Shown here piece by piece: positions 14,607 through 36,971 of a DNA stretch of 53,815 bases. This DNA comes from Oscillospiraceae bacterium (GTDB lineage: Bacteria; Bacillota; Clostridia; Oscillospirales; UBA929), in the NCBI GenBank assembly GCA_031254575.1, contig JAIRUE010000024.1:1-53815 (forward strand), written 5' to 3'. Within the stretch, counting starts at the first letter, position 1; each line of letters starts with the position of its first letter. The notes beneath the pieces are model-generated. The model was not told where the DNA came from. It searched no databases and saw only the letters and a program-made list of their open reading frames with translations. Made by a program: the position numbers and the translations under genes.

Positions 14607-14809
14607 TGCGCCACTTTCCCTTCCAACAAGCGGATAAGCGGAGACATATATGTTTCTGAGAGGGCTCCCCATGTTCCCGCAACGATACCCACTATAATAC
14701 AGGCATTCGCAGATTGTCAAGAATGATTTAGCGTCTCCCGGACAGCAGTTCGCATACGCCGCGTGACGCCCCCTCCGGGGCAATCCCGCGGAGGGGGTGT
14801 GAAGAGGCG

Positions 14810-16911: not shown

Positions 16912-17589
16912 TCAGCCAAGCATCTTCTCCAGCATGATCCTGAACTCCCGCTCGCGCTCTCTGACGATGGCCTCCGGCTTGGGGACAAAGCGCAGCGCGT
17001 CCCCTTCGTTGATGATCTTCTCGGCTTCCCCGAGCAAATACTCCCGCATCTTTACCGCCTGTTCCCCCGTGACGCCCTCGCGGCCCGCCTCCTCCGCAAA
17101 GATCCGGTGCATGGCCTCCTCCAGAGCGATGACGTCCTCCGTGCGCTCGCCTATGATGGTATGCAGGTCTCCGCTGAGTTCCTCGATCTCCCGTTTTTGC
17201 GCCTCGATCAGCAGGTGGTGCTCAATGCGCTTGAGCAGCAGCGGCGGGGAAAACGGCTTGTGGATATAGTCCACCGCGCCGAGCGTCAGCCCCTCGAGCT
17301 CGCTCGCGGGGTCTTTGCGGGAGGTGAGGAAGATCACCGGGAAATGCTTCGTCTCCGCCCTGCCCTTGATGTCCCTCATCACGTCATACCCGCTCATGTC
17401 GGGCATCTCAATGTCCAGGAGGATGATGTCGGGAGAGACGATCTCCAGGATCTTCATCAGTTCCGTGCAGGAGGCGATGGTGATCACATCGTAGCGCTCG
17501 CTGCAGGTATTCTTCACCATAGCGAGGTTGGTCGCGCTGTCATCCACGATGATGACAACTTCTTTCCCTTGTTCTTCCATATTTTTCAT
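16912..17589 (-). CDS. response regulator (REC domain plus degenerate RpfG-like coiled-coil, no intact HD-GYP domain)
   Basis: IVDDS, LLDIEMP, FLTS, DYIHKP; C-terminus resembles the RpfG linker but ends early. Confidence 0.85.
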   Translation of the reverse strand: MKNMEEQGKEVVIIVDDSATNLAMVKNTCSERYDVITIASCTELMKILEIVSPDIILLDIEMPDMSGYDVMRDIKGRAETKHFPVIFLTSRKDPASELEGLTLGAVDYIHKPFSPPLLLKRIEHHLLIEAQKREIEELSGDLHTIIGERTEDVIALEEAMHRIFAEEAGREGVTGEQAVKMREYLLGEAEKIINEGDALRFVPKPEAIVREREREFRIMLEKMLG

Positions 17590-17595: not shown

Positions 17596-18093
17596 CTAAC
17601 TCATTGCCAGCGGCCTGGCCGCGTAGCTCCGGCTCGCCATTACGGTCCCGTTACTATAAAGCGTCAGCGTGACGGTGACAAGGCCGCCGGCCTCACCATG
17701 CGCTATCGCAACTCTCTTGCCCTTATAAAAAGCCGGTTCAAGCACCTTTCCCTCCACGACCCCGTCGTCTCTGTAAAGATAGCCGACAGCCGCCGGATGA
17801 TCGCTTTCATCCACAATCGAGTAGACAGCCGCCGGCGAGCCGCCGAAGGTTATTTTGAAAGGGGCGGCCTCCACCTCCGTCGCGTCCTCAACGTCGCCCA
17901 TAATGACAGCCGACAGGTTATCCAGCAGGGTGTTGATTTCGGAGAGGTCGTTCGCGCGCGCGTATATCATATAAACGGGCATGAATACCGAGCTGACGGC
18001 CACCGTGATGATGGACAGCACCAGCATCGCCATCAGCATTTCCATCAGCGTCAGGCCTTTTCTCCTCAAAAGCCGCATGGGCCGCCTGCGCAT
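17596..18093 (-). CDS. minor pilin (class III signal)
   Basis: RRKG|LTLMEMLMAMLVL with Glu5; AAGGAGG RBS. Confidence 0.88.
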   Translation of the reverse strand: MRRRPMRLLRRKGLTLMEMLMAMLVLSIITVAVSSVFMPVYMIYARANDLSEINTLLDNLSAVIMGDVEDATEVEAAPFKITFGGSPAAVYSIVDESDHPAAVGYLYRDDGVVEGKVLEPAFYKGKRVAIAHGEAGGLVTVTLTLYSNGTVMASRSYAARPLAMS

Positions 18094-18159: not shown

Positions 18160-18501
18160 CTACGGGCCAAACACTCTGAAATTATAGTCAGTCGTCGGCG
18201 CTCTCACCGGCACCGGAAAATCCTCAACGGTAATAACACTGCCGCCGGTACTTTCAAACGTGAAGTCCACATCGGAAGTTGACGCCGCAGTGCCGTCCAG
18301 CGCTTCCAGGCGCATTTCCTCCTGCATCGCCAGCCCATCCCCGTTCGCCTCGCCGGTCACCCTCGCCGCAACCAGCAGCGTCATGGTGACGGTGGCCATC
18401 AGAACGGTAAAGATGAAGATGCTGACAATCCCCTCCGTCAGGGTCTCTCCGCGCCGCGCCGTGAAAAGCGCGCGGGCGCGCTTACGTATCGAGCCGCTCA
18501 T
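18160..18501 (-). CDS. minor pilin (class III signal)
   Basis: RRG|ETLTEGIVSIFIF hydrophobic helix with Glu5. Confidence 0.8.
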   Translation of the reverse strand: MSGSIRKRARALFTARRGETLTEGIVSIFIFTVLMATVTMTLLVAARVTGEANGDGLAMQEEMRLEALDGTAASTSDVDFTFESTGGSVITVEDFPVPVRAPTTDYNFRVFGP

Positions 18502-19384
18502 GGCCGGTCACCTCCCAACTGCCCGGATCGGTCAAAAACATGTCCGACCGCGGCCACAGATCAATATTTTCGCAGTTTGGTTTATCTGCTTCACCGTACT
18601 CAGTGCGGGGAATATCCCTGCCCGGATACTGTTGCTGCTCGTCGATACGCCCGCCGTCAAATTTGTACAGCGTCTTCGTTTTGACCGTCAGCGGGTCCGT
18701 CAGGACCGCGCCGGCGTAACCGCCGGAATAGGCGGTCGTCACCGTCACCTCGGCGGTTCCGGTTATCTCCGCGCTCTGCGGGACCCGGTTCTGCGTGAGC
18801 CTCCATCTGTAAAACTCCACGTACACATACGGAGGGGGAGGGGTCCATATCGTCCAATAATTGTATTCCGCTTCCCAATCCGCGCACTTATGCGGCGTGC
18901 ACCGGACGCTCAGCGCAAACCGGATTTCGGCTTCAAACTCGACCCCCTCCGTATCTAATCCCAGCGACAGCAGCATCCCGTCTATATCGCCGCTGTCAAG
19001 TTTGAACGTCTCCCCGTAAGAATGGGTAAATGTCTCCGTTTCCCCGGCAGGGTTGGTACCAGGATGATAACACGACGCTTTCGCCTCGTCATACGCCGCC
19101 TTCAATACCTGCCCGCTCAGGGTCGTCACGGTGGGGAGCCCGCCGCTCAGCACACCGTCAATACGCGCGCCGGCATCAGGGAGCGTATCCTCCAGCACCG
19201 CTTTGAGCGTCCGCTCCATACTGCCGGCGTAGAGGTCAAGCTGGTTTTCGTCGCGCTTGATGTGCCGCGCGCCGAACGCGCCGAACGCGGCGGCCAGCGC
19301 CGAAACCCCGAGCGCCATCAGCAGCAGCATTGCCGCGAGGACAAACATCATCGACGCGCCGCTTTTTCTCCGCAGCCGCTTCAT
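18482..19384 (-). CDS. PilX/GspK-like minor pilin (no Glu5)
   Basis: KRLRRKSG|ASMMFVLAAMLLLMALGVSAL; translationally coupled to neighbours. Confidence 0.75.
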   Translation of the reverse strand: MKRLRRKSGASMMFVLAAMLLLMALGVSALAAAFGAFGARHIKRDENQLDLYAGSMERTLKAVLEDTLPDAGARIDGVLSGGLPTVTTLSGQVLKAAYDEAKASCYHPGTNPAGETETFTHSYGETFKLDSGDIDGMLLSLGLDTEGVEFEAEIRFALSVRCTPHKCADWEAEYNYWTIWTPPPPYVYVEFYRWRLTQNRVPQSAEITGTAEVTVTTAYSGGYAGAVLTDPLTVKTKTLYKFDGGRIDEQQQYPGRDIPRTEYGEADKPNCENIDLWPRSDMFLTDPGSWEVTGHERLDT

Positions 19385-22300
19385 GACGCCTTTCCTCCCC
19401 GCCCGGCGAGCTTTTTGTTCCTGCGGCGTTTCGTTCCGCTCCAGGTGAAGATGATGGGCAGGATCATCGCGGGGATCTCACTCCCGTCCGGCAGCGGCAG
19501 CGACGCCTGCTGATCGCCCGGCCCCGCCATTCCGCTTGCGGCGTCTTCGTCCGTGACATTGATGGTCAGCCTGACCGGGCCGGATTCGAGGGATATATCC
19601 GGGCTGCCGGGCTTGGTCGCCGTCACGTCGATCGTATAGTATATGTCCAGGGTTCCGGACGGATACGTGTAGCTGCCGGGACCGCCGTTTGCCGGCGGCG
19701 TGATGTTTATCTGCACGGTATTGGTACTGGGGTTATGCACCAGTTCTATGATATAGCCGCCGGTCCGCAGTTCGATGTTGCCGTTGGCGTTCACCGTGGC
19801 GGGCGCGCCGTTCTCCGTGGCCCTCAGCCCGACCAGCGCGCTGAGCGCGTAACCGTCCTCGCCGAGCATGTTGTCCCTGATGTAATCGCCCAGGAAGTCG
19901 GCCGTAAAGCTCTCCTGCTCGCCCGAAGGTTTCTGCGTCCACCCATGCGTGTTCACCGTGACCGTCTTCGGCGCCGGTTTGGGGGCGATCCCCACAGCCG
20001 TCCTCGGGAAATCCATCAGCACCGGGGTCACGACCGGATCGCCGCCGCTTACGCCTTCACTGACATAGACATACCGGTATGTCGCCGAAACGGTATCGTA
20101 CATGACGCCGAATTTGCTCCCGGTATATTGCAGGATATAGGGATAATCCACGCTCTTTACCCCGGTTTTTTCTATATTGGCGTTGAATGTTATGCGGCTG
20201 CCAACTTCCGCTCCGTCCTTATACGCGGTAAAGCCGTCCCGCATGACGACGGTGACAATGCCGGTCGCGTTGGTATTCTGGCCGTCGGAGATGTCCAATA
20301 CCGTAAGTCTGCCGTCGTATACGTCCGTTCCCACAGCCGTCTTCTCCAGCCCGATGGGGCTGATGTACACCTTGATCGCATCCTTGTCGGAGCCGTTCGG
20401 CGAATAGGCGGGCGTTCGTATGATGTTGTAAGGCGCCCGCGCCCCGGCGTCGTTCCATTGGACCACGCCCTGATTGCGGAAATACAGCCCCAGCGTCGAA
20501 CCCTCGGCGGTTGTGCCGTTCACCCATTCGCGCACATCGATCTGGAACCGCACCACAATGGTTTCCCCGTATTTGAGCGTCCCGGGGGTCACGCTCAGCG
20601 TCCAGCCGTTCGCGGCGCTGGGCAATGTGACGGCGGGGGTTATGAGGTTCCCGTCCTTTGTAACGGTGAGGCCCATAATATTTCCGGCATCAAGGTAGGC
20701 GTCAAAGGGGGCAAGCTGATCCTCGATCCTGATACCGCCCGCCTCTATCTCGCCGTGGTTTTTCACATGCAGTTCCACCGTCAGGCGGTCATTTGGGCTG
20801 ACAAATTTGGCGTCGGAGCCGCTCGCGGCCCGGACGTATTTATCGATCGTGAGGAAAGCGGGGGCCTGGAAGGTGATGCCGTCCAGGTAGTTGCCCTGTT
20901 CCGGTTCCGCTGACCGGGACTCAAACGCGAATTCGGTGAAGGTCTGCTCGCCGGGGACGGTATACAGCCCGTAATACTGTTTCCACTCGCTGTACCCGTT
21001 CATCGGGAAAGAGCCGCCGGTTTCCACTTTCCAGTAGCCGATGACACGGTTTTCGGCGTAGCCGAATTGCGCCAGCTGGCCGACGGTATCCACGCCGTAC
21101 TGCGGGATTTTCCCGCCGGCGGGATCGCCCTCGCGGCCCCAATCGACCTGATACGAGCTGTCGGACCAGAAGGTGACGCCATAGCCGAGGCCCGCCACCC
21201 ATACGTCGTAGAGGTACGCGGTCCTCTGCGTCCTGGTGTGCGGGTCGTAGAACTCGACCTTCTGCGCCAGGCCGCGCCCGTCCGGGTCGGGTATATTGTG
21301 GTTGCCGTCAATACATGCCACCTCGCCGTTGAGATAGATCTGCCATGTATTGGTAGTGTCCGCGGGGTCGCCGATTATGGAGCCGTAGACGATGGTGCTT
21401 TGCATAGCCCTTGCCGGCGGCGCTTCGCCTCTGTTGTTTGTGGTGATGCACGGCGTGATGCAGGGGCGGATGATGGCAAGGCCGTCCTTGTAAGAGTAAC
21501 CGCCCACCGCCAGCCCGTCCGGCACCATGTCGGAAAGATAGAAGTTCATAATGTTGGCATAGAAGCGGGTGCCAAGCCCGCTATACCAGCCGTCGTTTTC
21601 CTTCCGCCTTGCCGCGTTGTAGAAAGAGTAGTATATTTCCGAGCCGGGGGCGGTTTTCGTGATCTGATACAGCGTGCCCTGCACCTCGGCGTTCAGCTCG
21701 GCAAACAGGCCGTCGGTCCCCCCGGTATAGCTTGTTCTCGGTATACCGCCGTTCCCGTCTGTCCGGGGACGCTGGAACTCCATCGTGCCCCAGAAGCCGC
21801 TGGCGTAATCCGCCGTATTGGTCGGCCTTGTGTTCCAGCCCTGCACCCATTCGGCCCGGTGATAGGCGTAGTTAGGCCAGCCAGCCCAGCCGGGGTTCGG
21901 GTTCCAGCTCCCCACACCCGTATTCCAGCCGCCGCTGCCGCCGCCCAGTATGGAAGACGTCTGCCCTGAGTTCGGGTCCACCAGAGGCAGGTCAAAGTCG
22001 CCGTTGATGAAGTCCACGATACCGACCAGATCTGCCGGGTGCGTGTCCGCCCAGCCGCCGTCGCGGTCCACCTGTCTCGCCGCGGCGTTGACCAGCTGCC
22101 ATTCCTCCGGGTCCTCCAAAGCGGTCAGCACCGGATAGGGATACCCGGTATCCTGCGACATTTCCCACGCGTCTTCAAGCGGATCGGAAACGCCGGTCAT
22201 CACCATGGGGAGGTAAACCTCGTTGAGGAAGTCGTAGTCGATGAATTCGGACTGCAATCCCGTGCCGCCGCCCTCAACGGCGTTGGTGTTGTACTGATCC

Positions 22301-25300
22301 GGCACCCAGTGCTGCGCGCTTGAAGGCAGGTGCCCCTCCAGCGTGTAGCTGTTGCCGGAGAGGAAGAAGCAGTCTCTATCGACATAACCCGCGCCGCCGC
22401 CTTTGATCGGGCGGATGATGCCGCCGGAGACCGGCGCGGGGGCGATATAGAACGCGCGCGCGATAGTGTTATTATTATTACCGGCATTGCCGGCAATGCC
22501 GCCGACCTCGCTTACGCCGCTGACCGGCGAATCGTCATGGGCGTCGATACCGAGTAAATAGACGTCTTTGATACTGGTTGACGTGTTGCCCGCGTACCCC
22601 ATAATACCGCCGACATTCGCCGCGCCGCCGGTGACGGCGCCGTACTCCACGGCGCATTGGCTGACATTGCCCATAGCCAGGCCGATAATGCCGCCGACAT
22701 TGTTGCCGCCGCCGGTAACATCGCTGTCCCTCACGGCGCATCCGCTGACGGCGCCGCCGTTGCCGGCAATGCCGCCGACGTTGTTGCCGCCGCCGTTGAC
22801 GGTGCTCTTCTCCACGGCGCACTGTCTGACGTCGCCCGCGGCGAAGCCGGCAATGCCGCCCACATGATTCCCGTCGCCTTTTACATTGACATACAGCGCG
22901 CGGAAGCCGCTCAGCCCGATCCCGCCGCTGCCCGTGATCCCGCCGGCGTATTGGCCTGCGCCCGTTATATTGACATACTGTACCGTATATCCGCCCGTCA
23001 CGGCGGTGATGGACGACCCGGCGGGGCTGCTGCCCGCGATCCCCCCGACACTTTCACCGCCGCCGCTGATATTGACCCATGTGGGGGACGTCGTGCCGGT
23101 GGGAAGGATGCCCGTCACCGAACATTTGTCGATCGTTCCGCCGTTCATGCCCGCAAGCCCGCCGACATAATCCGCCGTGCCGCTCACTTTGCAATACGTG
23201 GCGGTGCTGTTGCTGATCGTGCCGCCGTTTGTGCCGGCAAGCCCGCCGACATAGCCGCCGCCGGTGATGTCGTTGCGCTCAAGGGCAAGGTTTTGCGCGG
23301 CGCCGCCCGCGCCGATCTGCGAGAAGACGCCGATATTGTCCGCGGCGCTTTCTATGGCGAGGTTTCGGATGGCGTTGCCATCCCCGTCGTAATTTCCGGC
23401 GAACGCGCCGGACACGGCGGACACGGTGAAAACGCTGACGTCCGCGGCGGGACTGCCGAGGTTGACGTAACCGGACAAATCCCAGGCCCATCCGTCGGCG
23501 GTGTATGTCATGCCGCGGATATGATAGCCGTCGGGGGCGTTTATTTTGGCGAAGTCAAGGTCACGCTCCTGTGTAAAGTCCCCCGACAATGTGTCCGGGT
23601 TACGCCCGACGTTATAAAGGTGGCGCGGCGTACGGACGACGCGTCCGGCGGGGGGCGCCGCGTCATTCCCGTAAACCGCTTTGGCGAACAGCGGGTTGAA
23701 GTAACCGTCGTAGTAGCACCCGCTGGCGGCGGGATTGTAGGTGACGGTCAGCCTGACGGGGGCAATTCCGAGGTTCGATCCCGCGGCCGCCTCGACCGCG
23801 TCCATCGGGATAAAGTAATAATACAGCCCCGGCACCGCTTCGGCTTTCAGTTTGTCATTGGTAAGGGATATGACCCCGCCGCCGCCTGTTTTCAGCCGCA
23901 TAAGGGCAATGGGGACCTCTTCCTCAGAACGCAGGAGATAGCCGTCTTCGAGGATTTTCAGGCCGTCATTGAGCGTGTCCTCCCCGTCACCGTCCCAAAA
24001 ACCGTAATTGCTGCCGGTCAAGGGGTTTTCCTCCCCGTAACGCTCATAATACAGCAGGTCAAAGGTCAGGCCCTCCGGCTCCGGCCACCATTCCGGCTCG
24101 CTGACGAAATCGCTCAGACACGGGTACTGATAACGGTCGGCAATGTCATTCGCGCTGCCATAGCCTTCGCGCCATGTGAGCGTGCTCAGGGACCAAAGCA
24201 CTGTTTTCATATCCTCCGCCATGACGGGAGTTCCCTTGCTTGACGCGCCGTTGTTGTAGCCTTTTCCCGTAAGGTAATATACAAGGTGCCAATCCTCTAT
24301 CGCGCCCGGATAGCCCGTCCCGACAACGGGATTTGACGCGTTCCCAAAAAACGCGTCGGTGTACGCGGATTGCAGCGAACCGGCGCCGCTGATCGTCCCG
24401 GCTAACCCGCCCGTGCTGGCATCGGCTCCGGTGACGGACGTCACCCAGCCTGTTGTCTGCGGGTCGGCGGTGCCGTAGTTGAAGAAGACGTTTCTGACAA
24501 TGCCCTCAACCGCGCCCGCGATGCCGCCGACGGTATTCGAGCCTTCTACCTGCGTATAGTCCACATAGCAAATCTCGATCGTGCCCGTGGATTTTCCCGC
24601 GATCCCGCCGACGGAGTTGCCCCCGCTGACGGTGTTGTCGCTACCTAGGGACGGGCTTTCCACGCCGACGGACGAGTGTGTGATGACGCCGCCGTTCATG
24701 CCCGCGATCCCGCCGGTGTAGTCGCCGCCGCTGATATGCGCGTTGACCAGCGCCGCGCCGCGTATCGTGCCGCCGTTCATGCCCGCGACGCCGCCGGCGT
24801 AGCCGCCGCTGACGTCTATGCTTACGTTGACCAGCGTCACGTTTTCAACCGTGCCGCTGTCTGCGGCGGTACCGTCATTCTCAATCGCCGCGAACAGACC
24901 GGTGTTGCCGCCGCCGGTGATTTTCAGGTTGCGGATCTCTTTGCCGCCGCCGTCGTATTGGCCGGTAAATGTACCGTTGACCACGGCCTCGCCAATCTCA
25001 GCCATAGACGCTCGGTAGGTATAGGCGGCGTAAATTGTTCCGGCACTGAGTATTTCCCTGCGATATATCCCGAAATCCGCATCCAGCCGCTGGACATACG
25101 ACGCTTTCAGATTGTCCCCGTTCAGGTCTATATTGTCGATATGCCGGGGCGAGCGGATCAGTCCGGCCTCAGCGGGGGCAAACGCGGGATTGAACTCCGC
25201 CTCGAAGTCGGACGCGGTGAGCTTGATCTCCGCCTTGCCAGACGCGATATACGCCTTCCCGGACACATCTTCCAAAAACTCATTCGGGATGTAGATCCGC

Positions 25301-27879
25301 GCGGTTTCCTTATTCTCATTGCCGGGATCCACATAATAATGCACTTGCCATGTTCCGGCGTATCCTCCCCCGGTTACCGCCGCCGGCGCGACGGCAGCGA
25401 AATCAAGCCCTGAAATTTCGTAGTCGTCACCCTCTATCTGTATTTTGACATCCTTGCCCGCAAAGTCCGTGACGACCAGCGCGTACCCGTCATACTTCAC
25501 AACGGCGTCCGCGTCGTTTCTAAGCGTGGAAGCGGCAACGTCAAACCCGCCCGCGTCCTTGTCATATTTCATGTCTCCGTAAAGATCGCCGCTGTATATC
25601 TCGCAGTAAATCAGATCGACCGGGACGTCGTCATCCTCGGCAATCGGCCAGTATGGATCGCCCGGGAGAATACTTTCCTGCGCGGGTAAAAACGGATAGG
25701 GGTAAATCGGCAAATACGGAGGGACATTCCTGCAATCGACTTCCTCCGCGGCCGACAGCCCCGGTTTCTTCGTCCAGCCGCCAAGCATATAGCCGCCGGG
25801 CTGGTTCAGTTCATCGTACAGCGCCCAGGTGCCCTTTGGCTCGCCTATGTCGCCGTACGCCTTTTCCCGATTGTAGCCGTCACGGTTTCCCAGCGGCTTA
25901 AATACGGGATCGCCCGGTTCCGGCCTGATCGGCTCGCCCTTCAGGTAGTAAGTATTGCCGCCCGCCGTATTATTCCCGTCACCTATGATGGGATATATCA
26001 TTTCGCTTGACCCGGAGCCCGTCTTCGGCGCGAGCGCGAGGAACAGCGCGTTCATCACCGTGCCGCCGCCGTTGTGTCCGGCAATACCGCCCTTAACGGC
26101 GGAACCTTTTATATGCTCTTCCGGAAGCGGCGAGATAAAGGTGACGTTTACAATTTGGCCCGTTTCCAAAGAACCGGCAATGCCGCCCGCGCTGTCCGCG
26201 CCGGTAATAAATCTGTCTGTGTCGTATTTCACATACGCGCCGACGATCCTGGCGCCGCCGCTCAGTCCGCCGCATACGCCGCCCGCGTTCGCGCCGGCGA
26301 CGTTCGGGTTGCTGACGGTGATACTGTCCGCGCTGCCGCTCAGCGTGCCGCACAGCGCCCCCGCGCTGCCGCCGCCGCTGACGGCGGCATTACTGACGGT
26401 GATATTGTCCGCGCCGCCGCTCAGTTCGCCGCACAGCGCCCCCGCGTCGCCGCCGCCGCTGACGACCGGGTTGGTAAACACAAGGCCGCCTGCGGACCCG
26501 CTGACCGTCCCGAACAGCCCCGCGCGGGATGATGTGCCGGCAGGCAGGCTGACCCTCAGGTTAGAGACGGCGCGGCCGTTGCCGGAGAACCTGCCGGAGA
26601 AAGCGGGAATGGGCGCGAAGTTGAAAATATCGGAAGAATCACCGGTGTTTATCCCAATATCGTTCAGCAGCGTAAAGTTGGCGTCCGGCGCGAAACGGAC
26701 GTTATACAGGTGCCGCGCGGAGGTGATTGTGTAATTTCCGTCTGTCCCTCCGCTGTAAAAGGGGTGCTTAGAGCCGGATTCCACCCACACGCCGTTGGCG
26801 GTGTCGGTCAGCTTTGCCGTTATGTAACTGGCGGGGTTAACGAAGGTACTCCTGAGACAGCCCACATAATCAGATTCGGTGTCTCTGAGAACCTGGTCAA
26901 GAATATAGACGATACGGATTGCCTCGGGGCCGGTATCCATACTTTGGTATATTTCGGCGCCTGGCGTGCCGGGCATGCCGGGCATTGGTAAAACCCCGGA
27001 TGGTACAAAAGACGCGGAAGACGGGAGTGTGACGCCGGGAACGGATAAGGTAAATCCGTGATCCTGCCACGCAACCGGAATGAGTATATCGACATATAGC
27101 GCGTTTTTATTGGCATGTAACCACGCATCATCCGGTAATCCTTCACCCGGATTACAAGTATCTTTCAAGAAAATAAGGAGTTCGTCAAACTCTCCTATCT
27201 GGCTGGTGTTGTCCACGCCGTAGTAGCCCTGGCGGCGGTCACGGGCGCGGGAACCGTCCGGATACCCGCCCGGCCCCATGCCGCGCGGGCCGACGATATT
27301 GGTCGGCTCACTGTCGCTGTCATCGCCGCCATAATTCAACTCAGCCTGTGCGGCGTCCCCGTAAAAAACGGACAAAACAACACCGGTCTCGATGTTGTAC
27401 TCAATCAGTATGGCGTTGTCGAGGACGCCCCTGTCAACATCCCCTCTGGCGGAGACCATCGGGCTGAGCAGGCGCCGCATCAGCGCGGGCGCGGTGGTAT
27501 CCCACGGCCCTCTGGGTTTGCTGATGAAGTGGACCAATGTTTCATTGTCCGGGTCCTCATTGGGAGGCATGGGTATTGGCCCCTCAGCCTTATAAACAGG
27601 CCGTATGGACGCATATCCCGGAATCAATTCGCCATTCGCGTCATAATACTCAGTCTGCGCCGCTTTCAGCCCCCTGGTGACCCGGAGGTGTGTCAGCTGG
27701 TTCTGCGCCGCGAGGTAGACCGTCCTCGCGACATTCATGCGGTTGGCCTGCCGCCCCGCCTCCCAAAAATGGTACAGGGACGGCACGGCGATGGCCGCGA
27801 GTATGGCCAACACCACAAGCACGATCACGACTTCAAGCAAAGTAAAGCCGAGACGCCTTTTCCCGGACCTTTTCATCAC
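19381..27879 (-). CDS. giant (2832 aa) pilin-headed adhesin-like protein with GLUG-type repeats
   Basis: KRRLG|FTLLEVVIVLVVLAILAAIAVP class III signal; many (V/A)GG(I/L)AG repeats; three xRHxxN-led modules; DUF11-like domain near the C-terminus. Confidence 0.88.
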   Translation of the reverse strand: MMKRSGKRRLGFTLLEVVIVLVVLAILAAIAVPSLYHFWEAGRQANRMNVARTVYLAAQNQLTHLRVTRGLKAAQTEYYDANGELIPGYASIRPVYKAEGPIPMPPNEDPDNETLVHFISKPRGPWDTTAPALMRRLLSPMVSARGDVDRGVLDNAILIEYNIETGVVLSVFYGDAAQAELNYGGDDSDSEPTNIVGPRGMGPGGYPDGSRARDRRQGYYGVDNTSQIGEFDELLIFLKDTCNPGEGLPDDAWLHANKNALYVDILIPVAWQDHGFTLSVPGVTLPSSASFVPSGVLPMPGMPGTPGAEIYQSMDTGPEAIRIVYILDQVLRDTESDYVGCLRSTFVNPASYITAKLTDTANGVWVESGSKHPFYSGGTDGNYTITSARHLYNVRFAPDANFTLLNDIGINTGDSSDIFNFAPIPAFSGRFSGNGRAVSNLRVSLPAGTSSRAGLFGTVSGSAGGLVFTNPVVSGGGDAGALCGELSGGADNITVSNAAVSGGGSAGALCGTLSGSADSITVSNPNVAGANAGGVCGGLSGGARIVGAYVKYDTDRFITGADSAGGIAGSLETGQIVNVTFISPLPEEHIKGSAVKGGIAGHNGGGTVMNALFLALAPKTGSGSSEMIYPIIGDGNNTAGGNTYYLKGEPIRPEPGDPVFKPLGNRDGYNREKAYGDIGEPKGTWALYDELNQPGGYMLGGWTKKPGLSAAEEVDCRNVPPYLPIYPYPFLPAQESILPGDPYWPIAEDDDVPVDLIYCEIYSGDLYGDMKYDKDAGGFDVAASTLRNDADAVVKYDGYALVVTDFAGKDVKIQIEGDDYEISGLDFAAVAPAAVTGGGYAGTWQVHYYVDPGNENKETARIYIPNEFLEDVSGKAYIASGKAEIKLTASDFEAEFNPAFAPAEAGLIRSPRHIDNIDLNGDNLKASYVQRLDADFGIYRREILSAGTIYAAYTYRASMAEIGEAVVNGTFTGQYDGGGKEIRNLKITGGGNTGLFAAIENDGTAADSGTVENVTLVNVSIDVSGGYAGGVAGMNGGTIRGAALVNAHISGGDYTGGIAGMNGGVITHSSVGVESPSLGSDNTVSGGNSVGGIAGKSTGTIEICYVDYTQVEGSNTVGGIAGAVEGIVRNVFFNYGTADPQTTGWVTSVTGADASTGGLAGTISGAGSLQSAYTDAFFGNASNPVVGTGYPGAIEDWHLVYYLTGKGYNNGASSKGTPVMAEDMKTVLWSLSTLTWREGYGSANDIADRYQYPCLSDFVSEPEWWPEPEGLTFDLLYYERYGEENPLTGSNYGFWDGDGEDTLNDGLKILEDGYLLRSEEEVPIALMRLKTGGGGVISLTNDKLKAEAVPGLYYYFIPMDAVEAAAGSNLGIAPVRLTVTYNPAASGCYYDGYFNPLFAKAVYGNDAAPPAGRVVRTPRHLYNVGRNPDTLSGDFTQERDLDFAKINAPDGYHIRGMTYTADGWAWDLSGYVNLGSPAADVSVFTVSAVSGAFAGNYDGDGNAIRNLAIESAADNIGVFSQIGAGGAAQNLALERNDITGGGYVGGLAGTNGGTISNSTATYCKVSGTADYVGGLAGMNGGTIDKCSVTGILPTGTTSPTWVNISGGGESVGGIAGSSPAGSSITAVTGGYTVQYVNITGAGQYAGGITGSGGIGLSGFRALYVNVKGDGNHVGGIAGFAAGDVRQCAVEKSTVNGGGNNVGGIAGNGGAVSGCAVRDSDVTGGGNNVGGIIGLAMGNVSQCAVEYGAVTGGAANVGGIMGYAGNTSTSIKDVYLLGIDAHDDSPVSGVSEVGGIAGNAGNNNNTIARAFYIAPAPVSGGIIRPIKGGGAGYVDRDCFFLSGNSYTLEGHLPSSAQHWVPDQYNTNAVEGGGTGLQSEFIDYDFLNEVYLPMVMTGVSDPLEDAWEMSQDTGYPYPVLTALEDPEEWQLVNAAARQVDRDGGWADTHPADLVGIVDFINGDFDLPLVDPNSGQTSSILGGGSGGWNTGVGSWNPNPGWAGWPNYAYHRAEWVQGWNTRPTNTADYASGFWGTMEFQRPRTDGNGGIPRTSYTGGTDGLFAELNAEVQGTLYQITKTAPGSEIYYSFYNAARRKENDGWYSGLGTRFYANIMNFYLSDMVPDGLAVGGYSYKDGLAIIRPCITPCITTNNRGEAPPARAMQSTIVYGSIIGDPADTTNTWQIYLNGEVACIDGNHNIPDPDGRGLAQKVEFYDPHTRTQRTAYLYDVWVAGLGYGVTFWSDSSYQVDWGREGDPAGGKIPQYGVDTVGQLAQFGYAENRVIGYWKVETGGSFPMNGYSEWKQYYGLYTVPGEQTFTEFAFESRSAEPEQGNYLDGITFQAPAFLTIDKYVRAASGSDAKFVSPNDRLTVELHVKNHGEIEAGGIRIEDQLAPFDAYLDAGNIMGLTVTKDGNLITPAVTLPSAANGWTLSVTPGTLKYGETIVVRFQIDVREWVNGTTAEGSTLGLYFRNQGVVQWNDAGARAPYNIIRTPAYSPNGSDKDAIKVYISPIGLEKTAVGTDVYDGRLTVLDISDGQNTNATGIVTVVMRDGFTAYKDGAEVGSRITFNANIEKTGVKSVDYPYILQYTGSKFGVMYDTVSATYRYVYVSEGVSGGDPVVTPVLMDFPRTAVGIAPKPAPKTVTVNTHGWTQKPSGEQESFTADFLGDYIRDNMLGEDGYALSALVGLRATENGAPATVNANGNIELRTGGYIIELVHNPSTNTVQINITPPANGGPGSYTYPSGTLDIYYTIDVTATKPGSPDISLESGPVRLTINVTDEDAASGMAGPGDQQASLPLPDGSEIPAMILPIIFTWSGTKRRRNKKLAGRGGKAS

Positions 27880-27912: not shown

Positions 27913-28527
27913 CTAAAGGCTGTTGAGCATTGTCACCTCAAATGTAACGGTCGTCCGCTGCAGTTCCGCTTCGGGATCTTCCCCTCCGAATCCTTCCTCT
28001 CCGAAACCGAACGACAGGCTGCTGACGCGGACGTAGCCGATCCTGTCCACCGCGTTCAGCAGGCTCTTGAGCGAATCGTAGCTGGTTGTGGCCGCGACGG
28101 TCGCCGTGACGGTGCAGAACGCCGCGGCCTCCCCGCCGGCCGCACCGTCTCCCCCGGGGGCGTAAAAATCCACCGGTTTGGACAGGGTGAGGCTGGGTCC
28201 CTCCAGCCCGTTGTCCAGACAGAGTTTCGTCAGTTCGCGCCCGATCTCCTCGCTTTTGCTGGCCGGGCGGTACTGCTTCTCGATCAGGGCGTAGTCTTCG
28301 AGCGTCTGCTTATAGTTCGCCCGGATGGCCGATTCGCCCGCGAGGTCCCTGTTGACCATCATCTCCTGGTCGAGCAGCTTGCCGTATTCGTCTGTTCTCT
28401 CCAGATAGAGGTTGTATTGCGGCATGAACCCGAACTGAAACGCCACATAGAACAGCGCCACAACCGTCACGATGACCAGCAGCCGCTTCTCGTTCTTGCT
28501 CAGGCCTGTCTTCTGTGTCTGTTGCAT
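27913..28527 (-). CDS. pilO: PilO/GspM-like alignment protein
   Basis: LSKNEKRLL plus TM helix, coiled coil, then SYDSLKSLLNAV...VRVSSL; located after pilMN. Confidence 0.75.
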   Translation of the reverse strand: MQQTQKTGLSKNEKRLLVIVTVVALFYVAFQFGFMPQYNLYLERTDEYGKLLDQEMMVNRDLAGESAIRANYKQTLEDYALIEKQYRPASKSEEIGRELTKLCLDNGLEGPSLTLSKPVDFYAPGGDGAAGGEAAAFCTVTATVAATTSYDSLKSLLNAVDRIGYVRVSSLSFGFGEEGFGGEDPEAELQRTTVTFEVTMLNSL

Positions 28528-29948
28528 TACTCCGCCCCCTTTCCGGCCAGCGTGATCACGATTGAAAAGCCGTACTTGTCCTCGCCCTCGTTGGTGTACC
28601 CCGGATAGTCTATGTACGCGGCCAGGCCGCTGCGATAAAGAGCCTCCACATAATCATGCGGCGTATCGGGGTCGGCGCATTTCGCGCTCACGCGCACCGT
28701 TCCCGCCTTTTCGGAAAAATCGACCCGCGTGACGCTCACAGCCTGGCCGTGCAGGAAGATGATCTGGTCCAGCATGGCGCTTGAGGCTTCCGCCAGGCTG
28801 CCCTCCCATTCGAGTTTCGCGTCAAGCTGCTGTTTGATGCGGCTGTATATGTTCAGCTCCTGCGTGAGAGCTTCCAGCTCCGCCTGCCTTAGCAGGATCG
28901 CCGGGTCGTTGAGGAAGCCGTTTACCCTGTCTATGTCCTTTCCGGCGCTTCGCGCCATCCCCCAGAAGTAAAGGCACGGCGCGGCCAGCGCCACGACGTA
29001 CAGCGCCAGCAGCGGTATCCACAGCTTCCTGTGCTTCTGCTGCCGGATATGCCTGTTCAGCTCTTTGCGCGCGGCGATGAGGTCGATGCCGTCGTTTCCT
29101 ATCAGCATATCCATATAGGCGAAGGGCGCGTCGTACGGGATGGCGTTGTCCGTCGCCTTTTGGATGTCGATGATGCCCATCTGTAGGTCGCCGTATGGGT
29201 TTATCGCTTCCATCAGGCGGAGGTCGGCCTCGTTGACGCCGAGGTAATAGCAGTGGGTAAGCTCCTCGAACTTCTGGGAGCGGTTGAACTGGATGAGGCC
29301 GGACAGGTTATCCAGCGCGTTTTGGAAGAGGGCTTCCTTCGTGTCGCCGTAGAGGCGCGAGCGCGACATGAAGACATTGTTCCCGTTCTGGAAGATCAGC
29401 GACACCATCGTGAAGCCGTCGAGGAGGTTGAGGATGAACGACTTCTGCCGCAGCTCCTGTCTCGGCGCCACAAAGCTGAGGATGGCCTGCGCGCCCACAT
29501 GGATCGAACGGAGCCTGATACCGGCCGCCTTGAAGGCCTCGGTGTAGCTGTCCACCTGCGCGCTGTCGGCGGCGCAGGCCAGGATCACCTCGCTGCCGCC
29601 CTCGTCGCCCATCTTGAAACTGCCGCACACCAGATTATTGGGATTGTCGGTCGCGTCGGCGAAATCGTCCCGCACCAGCTGCTGGCGGCGTTTGCCGCCG
29701 AGCTTGGGCGTGACCAGCCTGCGGGACAGGATGGAGCTTCCGTCCACGATCAGCGAAGGATCGGCGAAAAGGCCTGGATGCTCTTTGCGCATCCCCTCCA
29801 GGCACTCCGTCAGAAACGCGGCGTCGGTGATCATGCCGTTGATCATCGTACCCTCCGGCAGGGGATGGGTGAGGTACTGTTTGACCGAACCGCCGACATA
29901 GCCGATAACCTGGATCTGTTCCGCCGAAACATAAATGGATGATTTCAT
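28527..29948 (-). CDS. pilM: fused PilM-PilN protein
   Basis: N-terminal actin-like PilM region (PLPEGTMINGMITD), TM helix LWIPLLALYVVAL, PilN-like C-terminus. Confidence 0.75.
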   Translation of the reverse strand: MKSSIYVSAEQIQVIGYVGGSVKQYLTHPLPEGTMINGMITDAAFLTECLEGMRKEHPGLFADPSLIVDGSSILSRRLVTPKLGGKRRQQLVRDDFADATDNPNNLVCGSFKMGDEGGSEVILACAADSAQVDSYTEAFKAAGIRLRSIHVGAQAILSFVAPRQELRQKSFILNLLDGFTMVSLIFQNGNNVFMSRSRLYGDTKEALFQNALDNLSGLIQFNRSQKFEELTHCYYLGVNEADLRLMEAINPYGDLQMGIIDIQKATDNAIPYDAPFAYMDMLIGNDGIDLIAARKELNRHIRQQKHRKLWIPLLALYVVALAAPCLYFWGMARSAGKDIDRVNGFLNDPAILLRQAELEALTQELNIYSRIKQQLDAKLEWEGSLAEASSAMLDQIIFLHGQAVSVTRVDFSEKAGTVRVSAKCADPDTPHDYVEALYRSGLAAYIDYPGYTNEGEDKYGFSIVITLAGKGAE

Positions 29949-29982: not shown

Positions 29983-31179
29983 TCAACCGAACAGATCCGG
30001 GGTGGAATACATCGACATCATCGGCATCATGACCGCCATCATAACCGTGCCGATCACCCCCGCCATAATGATCAGCATCACCGGCTCCATAAGCTGCACC
30101 AGCCGGCCGGTCGCCATTTCCGACTCATACTCGAAGGCGTCGGCGGTCGAGATCAGCATCGTGTCCAGACGCCCGGCCTCCTCGCCGATCAGGACGGTGT
30201 TGGAGAGCTTGCTGTCAAACCCGTCCACCTTGCGGATCGCCGCCGACAGCAGCTCGCCGTTGCGCACATCCTTGACCACGCCGCCGAACTGGCCCTCTAT
30301 GTATTTGTTGCCGACGATCGTCCCGGAGATCTCCAGCGCCCGTATCATCGAAACGCCGCTGGAATAGAGGGAGGAGAGCGTCCGGGCGAAACGGGCCGTG
30401 TAGATGATTTTCAGCAATCCGCCGATAACGGGCAGTTTCAGTTTCAGCCTGTCGAACTGATGCCGTATCTTCGGGACCCGCAGCAGGTATGTGACCAACG
30501 CCACGACGCTCACGGCGACGATGATGATGATATACCACCGCTCCGTAATAAAGTTGCTGATCGCGACGACCACTCTTGTCAGCGTGGGCAGCGTCATGCC
30601 TTCCAGCGCTGCAAAGAACTTGGGCAGGATGAAGACGAAGATGGCAATGACCACCACCACCGTCACGACCGCCAGAATAATCGGGTAGGTCATCGCCGAT
30701 TTGATCTTGCCGTTGAGCCTGTTTTCCTTGTCGTAATGCACGGACATTTTCTCGGTCACGTTTTCAAGCTGGCCGCTGGCCTCGCCGGAGGCGAACATGT
30801 TGACCAGCAGTTCCGGGAACGCCCTCCCCTGCCGGGTCATCGCCTCGGAGAGGGTGAAGCCCTGCTGTATGTCCCTGTGCAGTTTCTCATAGACATGCTT
30901 GAGCCTGACGTTTTTGAAGTCGCGTTCCTTGATGATCTCCAGCGCGCGCACCGCCGTGATGCCGCTGCCCAGCATACTGGCAAGCTGGCGGCAGAAGTCG
31001 GAGACGTCGCTCGCCTTCAGGCGGTATGTGGTCCTCTGCTCGTCGAGCTCCTTATAGCGCAGCGGAACAAGGCTTTTGCCCCGCATAATTTTCCGAAAGT
31101 CATCCTCGTCCCTCGCGTCCACCGTCGCGGAAACTTTTCTGTTGCCGAGGTCGAGCGCCGTGAACCGGTACTTTGCCAT
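29983..31179 (-). CDS. pilC: type IV pilus platform protein (T2SS F family)
   Basis: FCRQLASMLGSGI, GEASGQL, SAMTYP, GEEAGRLD, LMEP. Confidence 0.95.
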   Translation of the reverse strand: MAKYRFTALDLGNRKVSATVDARDEDDFRKIMRGKSLVPLRYKELDEQRTTYRLKASDVSDFCRQLASMLGSGITAVRALEIIKERDFKNVRLKHVYEKLHRDIQQGFTLSEAMTRQGRAFPELLVNMFASGEASGQLENVTEKMSVHYDKENRLNGKIKSAMTYPIILAVVTVVVVIAIFVFILPKFFAALEGMTLPTLTRVVVAISNFITERWYIIIIVAVSVVALVTYLLRVPKIRHQFDRLKLKLPVIGGLLKIIYTARFARTLSSLYSSGVSMIRALEISGTIVGNKYIEGQFGGVVKDVRNGELLSAAIRKVDGFDSKLSNTVLIGEEAGRLDTMLISTADAFEYESEMATGRLVQLMEPVMLIIMAGVIGTVMMAVMMPMMSMYSTPDLFG

Positions 31180-31191: not shown

Positions 31192-31959
31192 CTACAGCCC
31201 AAACAATCCCAGATACCCCGATATGATCTCTTTTCCGAACAGCATCGCCACGGTGACGCCCGCGCACAGATGGGGGCCGAACGCCATATGCTCGCCTCTG
31301 CCTTTTTTGCCCCTCAGCATCAGCGTCATGGCATAGCCGCCGCCCGTCAGAACGGCCAGGAAAAACGCGAGCAGGGTGTTCTGCCACCCCAGCAGGAAAC
31401 CGCAGACCGCCATCAGTTCTATGTCGCGTTCGCCGAACGCGCCGGAGATGATCAGCGCCAGCGCCAGCATCGGAACGCTCACGGCCGCCAACCCGATCCC
31501 GCGCCCGAGAAGCGTCACGTCCGGCTGCGCCCAGACCGCGCCCGCGGCGAAGGGAATCAGCGCCAGAATCAAAACGCCGGGTATCTCCATCGTCTCCATG
31601 TCGGTCAGCGCGACCGCCAGCAGAAGAACGCACACGCAAAACGCCAGCGGCGTCATCAGGGAAAACCTGTACCGTATAAAGCACAGCGCCGCCGGGAGGG
31701 CGCAAGCGACCTCAGCCAGCGGATAGCGCGGCGAGATCCGCGCCTTGCAACCCCGGCAGCGGCCCCGCAGGGCGAGCCAACTCACGACCGGGATCAACTC
31801 AAACCATCGCAGCGTTTTGCCGCATTCGGGGCATTTCGACCGCCCCCTGACAAAGGACTCCTTTTTCGCCGCCCGGAGCGCCGCGGCGTTGACGAAACTG
31901 CCCATGCACGCGCCGAGCGCGCAGGAGAACACCAATATGATGATTTCAACGGGTTCCAT
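31192..31959 (-). CDS. pilD: prepilin peptidase (A24)
   Basis: GSFVN, RSKCPEC...IPVVSWLALRGRCRGC...ISPRYP, TDMETMEIP, FGERD, MAFGPHL. Confidence 0.92.
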   Translation of the reverse strand: MEPVEIIILVFSCALGACMGSFVNAAALRAAKKESFVRGRSKCPECGKTLRWFELIPVVSWLALRGRCRGCKARISPRYPLAEVACALPAALCFIRYRFSLMTPLAFCVCVLLLAVALTDMETMEIPGVLILALIPFAAGAVWAQPDVTLLGRGIGLAAVSVPMLALALIISGAFGERDIELMAVCGFLLGWQNTLLAFFLAVLTGGGYAMTLMLRGKKGRGEHMAFGPHLCAGVTVAMLFGKEIISGYLGLFGL

Positions 31960-31978
31960 CGGCATCCTCCCCAAAAGT

Positions 31979-32835: not shown

Positions 32836-33216
32836 TTAGGGGTAAGCTACGCCAGTACCGCTGGTATCGCCAATTTCTATCGGGGGGTTGTTTTGAGATC
32901 TACCTGTTGTCAGGCTGACGCCAATACACATAGATCCTTGAAAATATAGGTCTACGGTTATGCCAGGAGCTGGCCCATTAATCTCAGCTGTTATTTGGGC
33001 ATTGGTTGGAGGAACAGTGCCTGTGGGGTCGGCCGCGACTATGGCAGCCATATACAGCGTCCGGCAGTCCGCCTCATCGGCGGCTCTGTTAGCGCGCTCA
33101 ATCACGCCGAGGATCGCCGGGGTCAGCGCCGCCACGAGGATCGCGATGATGACGATGACGACGATGAGCTCGATCAGGGTAAAGCCCTTGCGGTTGATCT
33201 TACGGAGTTTGTTCAT
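32836..33216 (-). CDS. pilA: major type IV pilin
   Basis: MNKLRKINRKG|FTLIELIVVIVIIAILVAALTP; AAGGAG RBS; 126 aa. Confidence 0.9.
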   Translation of the reverse strand: MNKLRKINRKGFTLIELIVVIVIIAILVAALTPAILGVIERANRAADEADCRTLYMAAIVAADPTGTVPPTNAQITAEINGPAPGITVDLYFQGSMCIGVSLTTGRSQNNPPIEIGDTSGTGVAYP

Positions 33217-33328
33217 GACCAAAGTCTCCTTTTTGCAATTTTATGTAAATCCCGTTGCACCTCGGAATTTGCACACGCTCTAAAGGATCGCGGGGATTAT
33301 GGAGAGACATTCCTCCTTTCTGTGTTTT

Positions 33329-34123: not shown

Positions 34124-35188
34124 TCACATCCGCCCGACGGCGCTCAAAAACTCCGTCCGGTCGTTGGCTTTTTCCAGCGCGTGTTCGCGCCTGACGACGC
34201 CCTTGCGCACCAGATCGGCCAGATAATTATCGAGCAGCACCATGCCCTGCCGCGCGCTCGTCTGTATCGTGGAGTCGAGCTGGTGGCCCTTGTTCTCGCG
34301 GATGAGGTTGAGCACGGCGTCGGTGCCCAGCATGATCTCGAACGCGGCGACACGCCCCTTGCCCTCGGCCCTCGGCAGCAGCGTCTGGGTGATGACGCCC
34401 TTGAGGACGGAGGCGAGCTGGGTGCGGATCTGCTGCTGATTGTGCGGCGGGAAGACGTCGATCACACGGTCGATCGTCATGGCGGCGCCGGTGGTGTGCA
34501 GCGTGGAGAGGACCAGATGGCCCGTCTCGGCGGCGGTCACGGCGGCGGAGATGGTTTCATAGTCGCGCATCTCGCCCACAAGGATGACGTCCGGGTCCTC
34601 GCGCATCGCGCTGCGCAGCGACGCCGCGAAAGAGGCGACGTCCACGCCGACATCGCGCTGGTGGATGATCGACTTTTTCTGCGTATACACGTACTCAACG
34701 GGGTCCTCGACGGTGAGGATATGGCAGGCGCGGGTCGAGTTGATGTAATCGACCATCGCGGCCAGCGTGGTGGATTTGCCGGAACCCGTCGGCCCGGTGA
34801 CAAGGATCAGTCCGCGCGGCTCGTCGGCAAGCTGTCTCAGCACGGGCGGCAGGTTCAATTCCTCAAAGGTGGGGGTGTTTTCGTTGATGATGCGGATGAC
34901 GCAGGCGAGCTTCTGCTGCTGGCGGAACACGTTGACGCGGTGGCGCAGGTTGCCCCCGATGGAATAGCACATATCCACGTCACTGCCGTCGTCCAGTTCC
35001 CCGCGCTGGCGCTCGTCCAGCATCGAGACGATCAGGGCGTATTTTTCCTCCGGCGTCATGGCGAGGTCGGTCTCGATCAGCGTCCCGTCTATGCGGAAAA
35101 CCGGGTTGCGCGCGTAGGTGAGATGGATGTCGCTCGCCCGGCGTTCCCGCGCCATGAGAATGAGCTTTACAATGTCAATGTCCATCAA
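34124..35188 (-). CDS. pilT: pilus retraction ATPase
   Basis: ASDIHL, GPTGSGKSTT, TVEDPVE, REDPDVILVGEMRD, AETGHLVLSTLHT, AVLNLIRE (AIRNLIRE-like). Confidence 0.95.
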   Translation of the reverse strand: MMDIDIVKLILMARERRASDIHLTYARNPVFRIDGTLIETDLAMTPEEKYALIVSMLDERQRGELDDGSDVDMCYSIGGNLRHRVNVFRQQQKLACVIRIINENTPTFEELNLPPVLRQLADEPRGLILVTGPTGSGKSTTLAAMVDYINSTRACHILTVEDPVEYVYTQKKSIIHQRDVGVDVASFAASLRSAMREDPDVILVGEMRDYETISAAVTAAETGHLVLSTLHTTGAAMTIDRVIDVFPPHNQQQIRTQLASVLKGVITQTLLPRAEGKGRVAAFEIMLGTDAVLNLIRENKGHQLDSTIQTSARQGMVLLDNYLADLVRKGVVRREHALEKANDRTEFLSAVGRM

Positions 35189-36902: not shown

Positions 36903-36971
36903 AACATCCCCCTGTCTTCTTACGGGCATGCCTGTTCACGTCCGGAAAAACATCGCTATCCGCTTACTTGT

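Follow-up and report, generated by a model that had tools for sequence, protein, structure and literature searches.

A giant modular pilin, probably an adhesin, in the type IV pilus operon of a gut Clostridia bacterium

We analyzed a stretch of 53,815 nucleotides (nt) from an Oscillospiraceae bacterium (assembly GCA_031254575.1, contig JAIRUE010000024.1), further called the window. It carries a type IV pilus (T4P) operon, and one gene of this operon encodes a protein of more than 2800 amino acids (aa) that begins like a pilin. The gene is here called the giant gene. An initial annotation of the window had described its product as a modular adhesin built directly into a retractile pilus.

The giant gene and the domains of its product

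The gene lies on the minus strand, and we divided it into the following features. Cleavage by prepilin peptidase is predicted at the slash.

19381..27879, minus strand: giant pilin gene, 2832 codons from GTG, stop included, with a probable ATG start at 27876
27682..27876, minus strand: class III signal peptide (MKRSGKRRLG/FTLLE, Glu5) and long helix alpha1 (model residues 13-66), by PF07963, TIGR02532 and an AlphaFold2 (AF2) model
26722..27876, minus strand: conserved pilin head of the family, about 385 aa, in which alpha1 is followed by an alpha/beta head whose strands reach to about aa 220 and then by an immunoglobulin (Ig)-like beta-sandwich (about aa 229-382), by homologs, profile search and AF2
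25600..26721, minus strand: module 1 (aa 387-760), GLUG/M26_N-type, starting with SARHLYN, by motifs and BLASTP homology
25153..25599, minus strand: spacer 1 (aa 761-909), LIYCEIY...DGYAL...FNPAFA, by motifs
24010..25152, minus strand: module 2 (aa 910-1290), starting with SPRHIDN, by motifs, homology and Atlas
23632..24009, minus strand: spacer 2 (aa 1291-1416), LLYYERY...DGYLL...FNPLFA, by motifs
22180..23631, minus strand: module 3 (aa 1417-1900), starting with TPRHLYN, with more consecutive rungs (about 27-28 aa each) than the other modules, by Pfam GLUG and rung spacing
20845..22179, minus strand: J domain (aa 1901-2345), conserved and rich in Trp, a probable beta jelly roll that has insertions and resembles a carbohydrate-binding module (CBM) or DUF642, by alignment A3, AF2, VIA and Atlas
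19510..20844, minus strand: Ig-like/DUF11-like stalk (aa 2346-2790), by matches below cut-off
19384..19509, minus strand: C-terminal tail ...LPLPDGSE-IPAMILPIIFTWSGT-KRRRNKKLAGRGGKAS (aa 2791-2832), about 15 hydrophobic residues followed by basic ones, by sequence and homolog tails

The initial annotation had reported an open reading frame (ORF) of about 2800 aa with the class III signal G/FTLLE, and this was confirmed. On the minus strand, positions 19381-27879 form a single uninterrupted frame. The ATG at 27876 is preceded, at a distance of 8 nt, by the ribosome-binding site GGGAGG; therefore the protein probably begins with MKRSGKRRLG/FTLLE and has 2831 aa. The database copy, P0002, is identical to this 2831-aa product. 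The mature protein has a mass of approximately 296 kDa and an isoelectric point of 4.5. Ordinary pilins are of 15-25 kDa, and the modular pilins studied so far are of approximately 50 kDa.

A protein of this size could be the product of a misassembly, which the initial annotation had named as a reason to give up its reading. We compared the giant protein with P0003, a homolog from an independent assembly, and obtained one collinear BLASTP alignment of 3149 columns with 33% identity. Since homologs from independent assemblies are collinear with it along its length, a chimera was ruled out.

The leader, MKRSGKRRLG/FTLLEVVIVLVVLAILAAIAVPSL, is short and basic, ends with Gly and is followed by approximately 20 hydrophobic residues with Glu at position +5, as expected for class III signal peptides. 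The N-terminus passed both pilin models (26.6 bits vs cut-off 21.2 for N_methyl PF07963, and 24.3 bits vs cut-off 16.3 for TIGR02532). The AF2 model of the head, calculated from a 19-row alignment, had a predicted local distance difference test score (pLDDT) of 71 and a predicted template modelling score of 0.51. It presents a 54-residue N-terminal helix (residues 13-66), then an alpha/beta region with four strands at 115-220, and a separate beta-sandwich at 229-382. In VIA this model matched only common Ig and FN3 folds, at residues 229-382 (Z 5-6.5), and Foldseek gave no match at E<=0.001. When the whole protein was searched against PDB sequences, only the N-terminal helix matched pilins (E 0.007-0.9). 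Judging from the sequence, we regard the pilin module at the front end of the giant protein as genuine.

Three large homologous modules, each starting with an xRHxxN motif, had been claimed for the body of the protein, and all of them were found. SARHLYN, SPRHIDN and TPRHLYN begin at aa 387, 910 and 1417 (nt 26721, 25152 and 23631), within approximately 12 nt of the earlier figures. Each start is followed by the F.G.[FY].G.G...NL motif that had also been reported (aa 427, 971 and 1493). In BLASTP, module 1 was 27% identical to module 2 over 284 aa (E 5e-10), and module 2 was 29% identical to module 3 over 289 aa (E 7e-9). GG[ILV]xG occurs 16 times from aa 565 to aa 1793, mostly at intervals of 27-28 aa, in agreement with the VGGIAG repeats described earlier. 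Their assignment to GLUG holds above the Pfam cut-off in module 3 only (PF07581, 27.7 bits vs 20.5, five stretches in aa 1412-1900); the InterPro entry of this family we take to be IPR011493. Modules 1 and 2 alone had no Pfam match, and module 2 had an Atlas feature score of 0.97 to the GLUG and M26_N clusters. Among the homologs, P0003 passed GLUG (53.2 bits) and P0005 passed Peptidase_M26_N (28.0 bits vs 27.7). Searches of PDB sequences with module 3 and with a profile of the three modules gave no meaningful relatives. The two spacers do carry the common LxYxExY, DGYxL and FNPxFA motifs noticed before (DGYAL and FNPAFA in spacer 1, DGYLL and FNPLFA in spacer 2), but BLASTP between them gave no similarity at E<=0.01.

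The Trp/Gly-rich region behind module 3 had been called unique. Alignment and homolog searches contradicted this and identified it as a conserved domain of the family, further called the J domain. Its invariant blocks are YAELNA..GTLYQ, YLYDVW..GYGITFWS, WKQYYG and GNYLDG(I/V)(S/T)F. The J domain had no Pfam match, and a J-domain profile found no meaningful match among PDB sequences. Its AF2 model had a pLDDT of only 50.3. In VIA the best match of this model was 4bj0_A, a CBM4-2 module (Z 9.9, root mean square deviation 4.0, 153 residues aligned), and all 20 chains at Z>=8 were CBM or MAM jelly rolls. The Atlas score for DUF642 (0.87) is a weak lead only. With the reserve due to such a model, the J domain is probably a CBM-like jelly roll.

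A DUF11-like domain had been proposed for the part that follows. Ig-like matches were indeed obtained for aa 2346-2790, but all of them stayed below cut-off: DUF7927 at E 1.3e-3 (19.4 bits vs 31), DUF11 at E 0.06 (13-14 bits vs 24.6) and, weakly, CARDB and Cadherin-like. In the homolog P0005, DUF11 reached 22.1 bits vs 24.6.

The family of giant pilins and their operons

We searched for homologs of residues 1-400 by a word index limited to proteins of 1557-4956 aa. There were 57 proteins with the head, the one from the window included, and they were 25-44% identical over essentially all 400 residues. Their source labels were those of proteins from Oscillospiraceae and Defluviitaleaceae metagenome-assembled genomes (MAGs). 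Further, we compared a profile of 19 heads with 1.84 billion representatives (clusters at 50% identity), and at least 224 clusters reached E<=1e-30. Relaxing the threshold raised this number far higher, to 1805 at 1e-10 and 38353 at 1e-3, which reflects matches to the generic pilin helix. The family is represented in MAGs of Oscillospiraceae, Defluviitaleaceae and Lachnospiraceae and in the cultured Proteocatella sphenisci. Strain DSM 23131 of this species encodes a 2568-aa member behind pilD (L034). Of 30 genomes in the taxonomic family of the window, 8 have the head, among them that of the window itself.

Most members have 1500-4100 aa. Among the best 150 representatives, 96 were of at least 1500 aa (the longest of 4121 aa), 33 of 700-1499 aa, one of 500-699 aa and 20 of less than 500 aa. 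The short ones break off in the middle of a domain and resemble fragments from contig ends. Complete proteins that are short hardly ever carry the head; this unit of approximately 385 aa is thus a dedicated carrier for very long bodies.

The J domain was found in 43 long proteins. The search with the head had already identified 36 of them, and three more begin with a pilin signal; the other four are two N-terminal fragments and two proteins with Sec-type signals. In the order as a whole, 9 of 401 sampled genomes had the J domain. As far as these sequences go, it is nearly private to the giant-pilin family.

The genes of the pilus machinery in the window are listed below.

35208..36929, minus strand: PilB extension ATPase with an MshEN/c-di-GMP-binding N-terminus (NF053729, 51.6 bits vs 38)
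34124..35188, minus strand: PilT retraction ATPase (TIGR01420, 458.7 bits vs 319.1)
32836..33222, minus strand: candidate major pilin of 128 aa (N_methyl, 38.3 bits)
31192..31974, minus strand: PilD prepilin peptidase (PF06750 and PF01478)
29983..31179, minus strand: PilC platform protein (T2SSF, 178 bits)
28527..29948, minus strand: PilM-PilN-type fusion of 473 aa (TIGR01175 pilM weak, 23.9 bits; conserved synteny)
27913..28527, minus strand: 204-aa protein in the position of PilO (position and conserved synteny; no family match)
18482..19384, minus strand: 300-aa pilin-like protein without Glu5 (KSG/ASMMFVL), candidate K-type apex minor pilin (N-terminus; no family match)
18160..18501, minus strand: 113-aa pilin-like protein (RRG/ETLTE; N_methyl 17.7 bits, below cut-off)
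17596..18093, minus strand: 165-aa minor pilin (RKG/LTLME; N_methyl 23.6 bits vs 21.2; TIGR02532)

All genes of the operon are on the minus strand, in the order pilB, pilT, DUF559, 128-aa pilin, PIN, pilD, pilC, PilMN fusion, PilO-position gene, giant gene, 300-aa, 113-aa and 165-aa genes, response regulator. From pilD to the response regulator they are tightly packed, with gaps of 0-34 nt, and the 300-aa gene overlaps the stop of the giant gene by 4 nt. The three minor pilins that had been placed downstream of the giant gene are there as pilin-like genes, but only the 165-aa protein passes N_methyl. The lack of Glu5 is a hallmark of the K or apex subunit in minor-pilin tip complexes (PMC10628169); the giant protein retains this residue, unlike its 300-aa neighbour. 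We also predicted a complex of the head with the three pilin-like neighbours. The score was 0.24 (mark 0.32), which speaks neither for nor against such a complex.

The survey of synteny with the T4P genes, suggested earlier, was performed on species-representative genomes. We recovered 32 loci, 18 of them with a full-length match to the head. In 12 of these 18, pilD, pilC, pilMN and pilO lie directly upstream of the giant gene. A sortase gene is directly upstream in another three, and in the two of these that were checked the T4P cluster is a few kb off. The upstream part of the remaining three was too short or empty. A homolog of the 300-aa protein adjoins the giant gene in nine loci.

G017, a genome of the same genus as the window, has two giant pilins. 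The first (L021, contig C14) is of 1837 aa, is encoded inside a T4P operon and has no tail. The second (L022, contig C12) is of 2859 aa, is encoded beside a sortase gene, with a 300-aa partner gene; the protein contains the jelly roll and a Cys-rich stretch and ends with the tail.

A putative adhesin at the tip of a retractile pilus

We consider it fairly likely that the product of the giant gene is a modular minor pilin displayed at the tip of a PilT-equipped T4P of the Gram-positive type, where it would act as an adhesin. The class III signal peptide would insert the protein into the membrane, and PilD of the same operon would cut it after Gly10. The alpha1 helix with its Glu5 may then be loaded, along with the other three pilin-like proteins, on the PilC/PilMN/PilO platform. 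Among these, the 300-aa protein without Glu5 would be the apex subunit, and the 113-aa and 165-aa proteins the remaining partners. Such a set of minor pilins would prime the fibre of the 128-aa major pilin and leave the giant subunit at the tip. Bulky modular pilins have been argued to be located there because their modules cannot pack within the body of the fibre (PMC8179133, PMC10628169), and it is by this argument, as for PilB and PilC of Streptococcus sanguinis, that we place the giant protein at the tip. The adhesive part would be the body of approximately 2400 aa, with the Ig-like domain, three GLUG/M26_N modules and their spacers, the probable carbohydrate-binding jelly roll and the Ig-like stalk. 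Extension by PilB would drive this rod-like body out through the wall, and retraction by PilT would draw the cell toward whatever ligand it holds. The earlier proposal of an adhesin built into a pilus with PilT thus agrees with the pilin module, the PilD/PilB/PilC/PilMN/PilT operon, the synteny and the adhesin-type modules, and it is complicated by the tail. It is in this sense that the gut Clostridia bacterium studied here probably carries a whole giant adhesin on a retractile pilus.

Several observations weigh against the tip adhesin. If the mature protein retains the tail, its two ends would both be held at the membrane, and a tip subunit tied to the membrane by its far end is hard to square with a long free pilus. 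The head fold was matched to no solved pilin, because the fold searches picked up the Ig-like sandwich alone, which filled the Foldseek and VIA lists. The presumed right-handed beta-helix fold of the modules depends on GLUG membership and on the periodicity of 27-28 aa, and the putative jelly roll depends on a model with pLDDT 50. The 300-aa and 113-aa neighbours pass no pilin model, and the 300-aa one is called pilin-like from its N-terminus alone. Finally, a search for sequencing runs of DNA or RNA listed none for this protein.

The nearest known proteins are PilB and PilC of S. sanguinis, with a vWA module and a lectin module, respectively. They likewise have a class III signal and a small pilin module onto which adhesin modules not belonging to pili are grafted (PMC8179133, PMC9934059, PMC10628169), they are encoded with PilD and PilT in the T4P operon of a monoderm, and they have been proposed to sit at the tip with a partner lacking Glu5. 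Each of them, however, has one module, while the giant protein has approximately eight domains and 296 kDa, a family-specific head of approximately 385 aa with an added Ig-like domain, and the hydrophobic and basic tail. Modular pilins as a concept are known from the literature. In a survey, Raynaud et al. 2021 found more than 1200 of them in 264 architectures, with an 860-residue protein as the most extreme multi-domain case (PMC8179133). By the definition used there the giant protein is a modular pilin, with a pilin motif and GLUG above cut-off. The same survey contains the architecture IPR012902-IPR011493, in which a GLUG-type signature stands behind a pilin motif, but the parts of it used here merely list this as an M26 peptidase and do not describe its size, family, synteny or C-terminal features. 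We found no paper on the family, its size range, the dedicated head, the jelly roll or the tail, leaving aside the supplementary tables of PMC8179133, which may list members. What is new here is the J domain, the C-terminal tail and the adjacency of a sortase in three genomes of one genus.

CofB of enterotoxigenic Escherichia coli, GspK and the HIJK tip complex are comparable in that minor pilins with extra domains prime assembly and stay at the tip, with an apex subunit that lacks Glu5 like the 300-aa neighbour. These pilins are approximately 10 times smaller and belong to diderm systems, and PDB sequence, Foldseek and VIA searches found no sequence or fold relation of the giant protein to them. 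PilY1/PilC of diderm type IVa pili is similar in function, as a large adhesin on the minor-pilin tip complex of a retractile pilus. PilY1 is no pilin and docks via a beta-propeller, whereas the giant adhesin would itself be a pilin; PF05567 (PilY1) was absent from its Pfam matches at E<=1. The initial annotation had let the giant protein take the place of a separate PilY1-like adhesin. A search of the genome for PF05567 gave no match, but control genomes gave none either, so this result is uninformative. The modules resemble those of Firmicutes GLUG/Peptidase_M26_N surface proteins and streptococcal IgA1 proteases, which share the xRHLxN ... F.G.FDG.G..I.NL start and the GG(I/L)AG rungs. The giant protein differs from them by the absence of a catalytic M26 domain and by modules fused to a pilin and alternating with a family-specific spacer domain.

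Conserved pilins of 150-450 kDa raise the question how the T4P platform and motor load such a subunit and how it crosses thick peptidoglycan. A further question is what force and reach a tip adhesin made of rigid rods would give. In gut communities that degrade fibre, a retractile pilus equipped with a probable carbohydrate-binding domain would allow direct attachment to plant particles or partner cells. The cultured P. sphenisci DSM 23131 puts the family within experimental reach.

The C-terminal tail and other readings of the protein

The giant protein ends with a hydrophobic stretch and a basic tail, which the initial annotation had overlooked. We defined a strict rule for such tails: an uncharged window of 12 residues with mean hydropathy >1.5, followed by at least three Lys or Arg. 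It was satisfied by 15 of the 57 long homologs and by 15 of the 150 family representatives. A slightly tighter rule marked 108 of the 3378 ORFs of at least 150 aa in the genome, mostly ordinary membrane proteins. Twelve tails have a common G-[LF]-P-[ILV] core (e.g. IIAGLPIFYIGRRE, IIGLPLAYVGKRE, IIGGLPIYLIGKRE). By eye, approximately 19 of 34 members with the J domain end in such a tail, and the remainder stop right after the last Ig-like domain. Among complete genes in the representative genomes 3 of 15 passed the rule and a fourth was similar. Complete relatives without a tail are encoded inside T4P operons (L021, L031, L034, L037 and L047). As many relatives lack it, the tail is, to judge from these sequences, a conserved but facultative accessory outside the core mechanism. 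It would most simply be a membrane anchor for the far end of the protein.

We observed also that runs of CxC/CxxC in an acidic context (e.g. CECDDCVCEEEC...) stand just before the hydrophobic tail in P0005, P0007, P0011, P0012, P0015 and P0068. The giant protein of the window has no such run.

The tail allows a different reading, in which the protein is a surface fibre with both ends at the membrane. A short pseudopilus would push the folded 296-kDa loop through the wall and hold it there, in the manner of the type II secretion pseudopilus or the archaeal bindosome. The recurrence of the tail and of its core speaks for this, as does the proposed link of the Gram-positive T4P set of Clostridium perfringens to the secretion of a folded protein through peptidoglycan (PMC11580942). 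We nevertheless find double anchoring, the main rival of the tip adhesin, unlikely. The T4P-operon relatives named above do without the tail, the presence of PilT and of a separate small major pilin speaks for a true retractile fibre, and the hydrophobic stretch, only 12-16 aa long and with many Pro and Gly residues, is marginal as a membrane-spanning helix. A related and equally doubtful possibility concerns only a subset of giant pilins, that of the window among them. These would be held by the pilin helix on the pilus and by a conserved C-terminal signal (hydrophobic-G-L-P-x3-hydrophobic-basic) that is either retained in the membrane or processed, and the motor would deploy and reel in the tethered fibre through the wall over tens of nm. 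If true, tethering at both ends would be a new use of the type IV pilus, possibly with a new C-terminal sorting signal. The facultative tail presents a puzzle of topology that is open to testing.

The tail could also be a sorting signal that is cleaved, with the giant protein, a substrate of both PilD and a sortase, linked covalently to the wall or to another protein by the long sortase of this locus or another enzyme. The genes that bear on this are the following.

38445..40265, minus strand: class-B-like sortase of 606 aa with an extra C-terminal region of approximately 300 aa (PF04203, 36.9 bits; TIGR03064, 143.6 bits vs 153.75)
40376-41023, 41059-41748 and 41687-42316, minus strand: three small paralogous secreted proteins (215, 229 and 209 aa) with tails of (S/G)AKTGD, approximately 23 hydrophobic residues and RKVKA

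The sortase gene flanks the T4P locus, just upstream of pilB in the window, and in three genomes of the same genus (G018:C9, G016:C3 and G017:C12) an ortholog with 53-64% identity immediately precedes the giant gene. The tail of the giant protein, LPDGS-E-IPAMILPIIFTWSGT-KRRRNKK, has the three-part layout of a sorting signal, with LPDGS (LPDAG in P0003) before the hydrophobic stretch and the basic end. It contains, however, no LPXTG-type or xAKTGD-type motif, and TIGR01167 or any other sorting-domain model gave no match on it. The family has no conserved sequence just ahead of the hydrophobic stretch (LPDGS, LPDAG, LLDVA, LLDAD, PLDTM, GFDPI). NCBIfam models on nine C-terminal tails gave one sub-threshold Synerg-CTERM match, in one homolog (13.8 bits vs 22.5), and nothing else. 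A search of the genome, 95% complete, for exosortase (PF09721) gave no match, and the adjacency of the sortase is limited to one genus. The three small AKTGD proteins are probably the substrates of the 606-aa sortase. Since the sortase has these evident substrates, the giant tail lacks their motif and the genome holds two other sortases, we consider processing of the giant protein by this enzyme improbable.

The pair of giant and 300-aa genes lies between the sortase gene and a lipoprotein gene in the relatives and between pilO and the 113-aa gene in the window, and G017 has one giant gene in each of the two positions. This arrangement suggests that the pair has moved between positions. The sortase has near-full-length homologs throughout the genus and in some neighbouring genera. 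The three small genes lie directly upstream of the sortase gene and are masked by longer spurious ORFs on the plus strand. Neither the C-terminal extension of the sortase nor the three small proteins had a Pfam match. Other proteins of the genome end with NPKTGD (C116) or NARTGE (C1).

Streptococcal IgA1 proteases are the proteins on which M26_N and GLUG were originally defined, which counts in favour of a secreted M26-type peptidase, similar to IgA proteases, with a mere pilin-like leader. Although an InterPro survey also interpreted the architecture IPR012902-IPR011493 as that of a predicted M26 peptidase (PMC8179133), this reading can practically be set aside, as the giant protein has no HExxH anywhere and no match to a peptidase family in Pfam at E<=1, and both it and the homologs scanned have only the non-catalytic N-terminal and GLUG parts.

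Some further genes accompany the pilus genes of the window. A DUF559 endonuclease-like gene (33393-33944, minus strand) and a PIN-domain gene (32182-32655, minus strand) are placed inside the pilus operon, among pilT, pilA and pilD. Among the relatives, G018 has a DUF559 gene between pilA and pilD, and in G016 a PIN gene adjoins pilB. The response regulator gene that closes the operon (16912-17589, minus strand) is kept in relatives, with 63% identity of the product in L021. Further downstream, past a flavodiiron-type gene (14991-16838), there is a gene for a hybrid histidine kinase with a Cache sensor (12030-14783, minus strand). Together with the MshEN domain of PilB, the response regulator and the kinase suggest, from their predicted domains, that piliation is controlled by signals. 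Three more N_methyl-positive pilin genes are located elsewhere in the genome, on contigs C10, C67 and C41 of G000.

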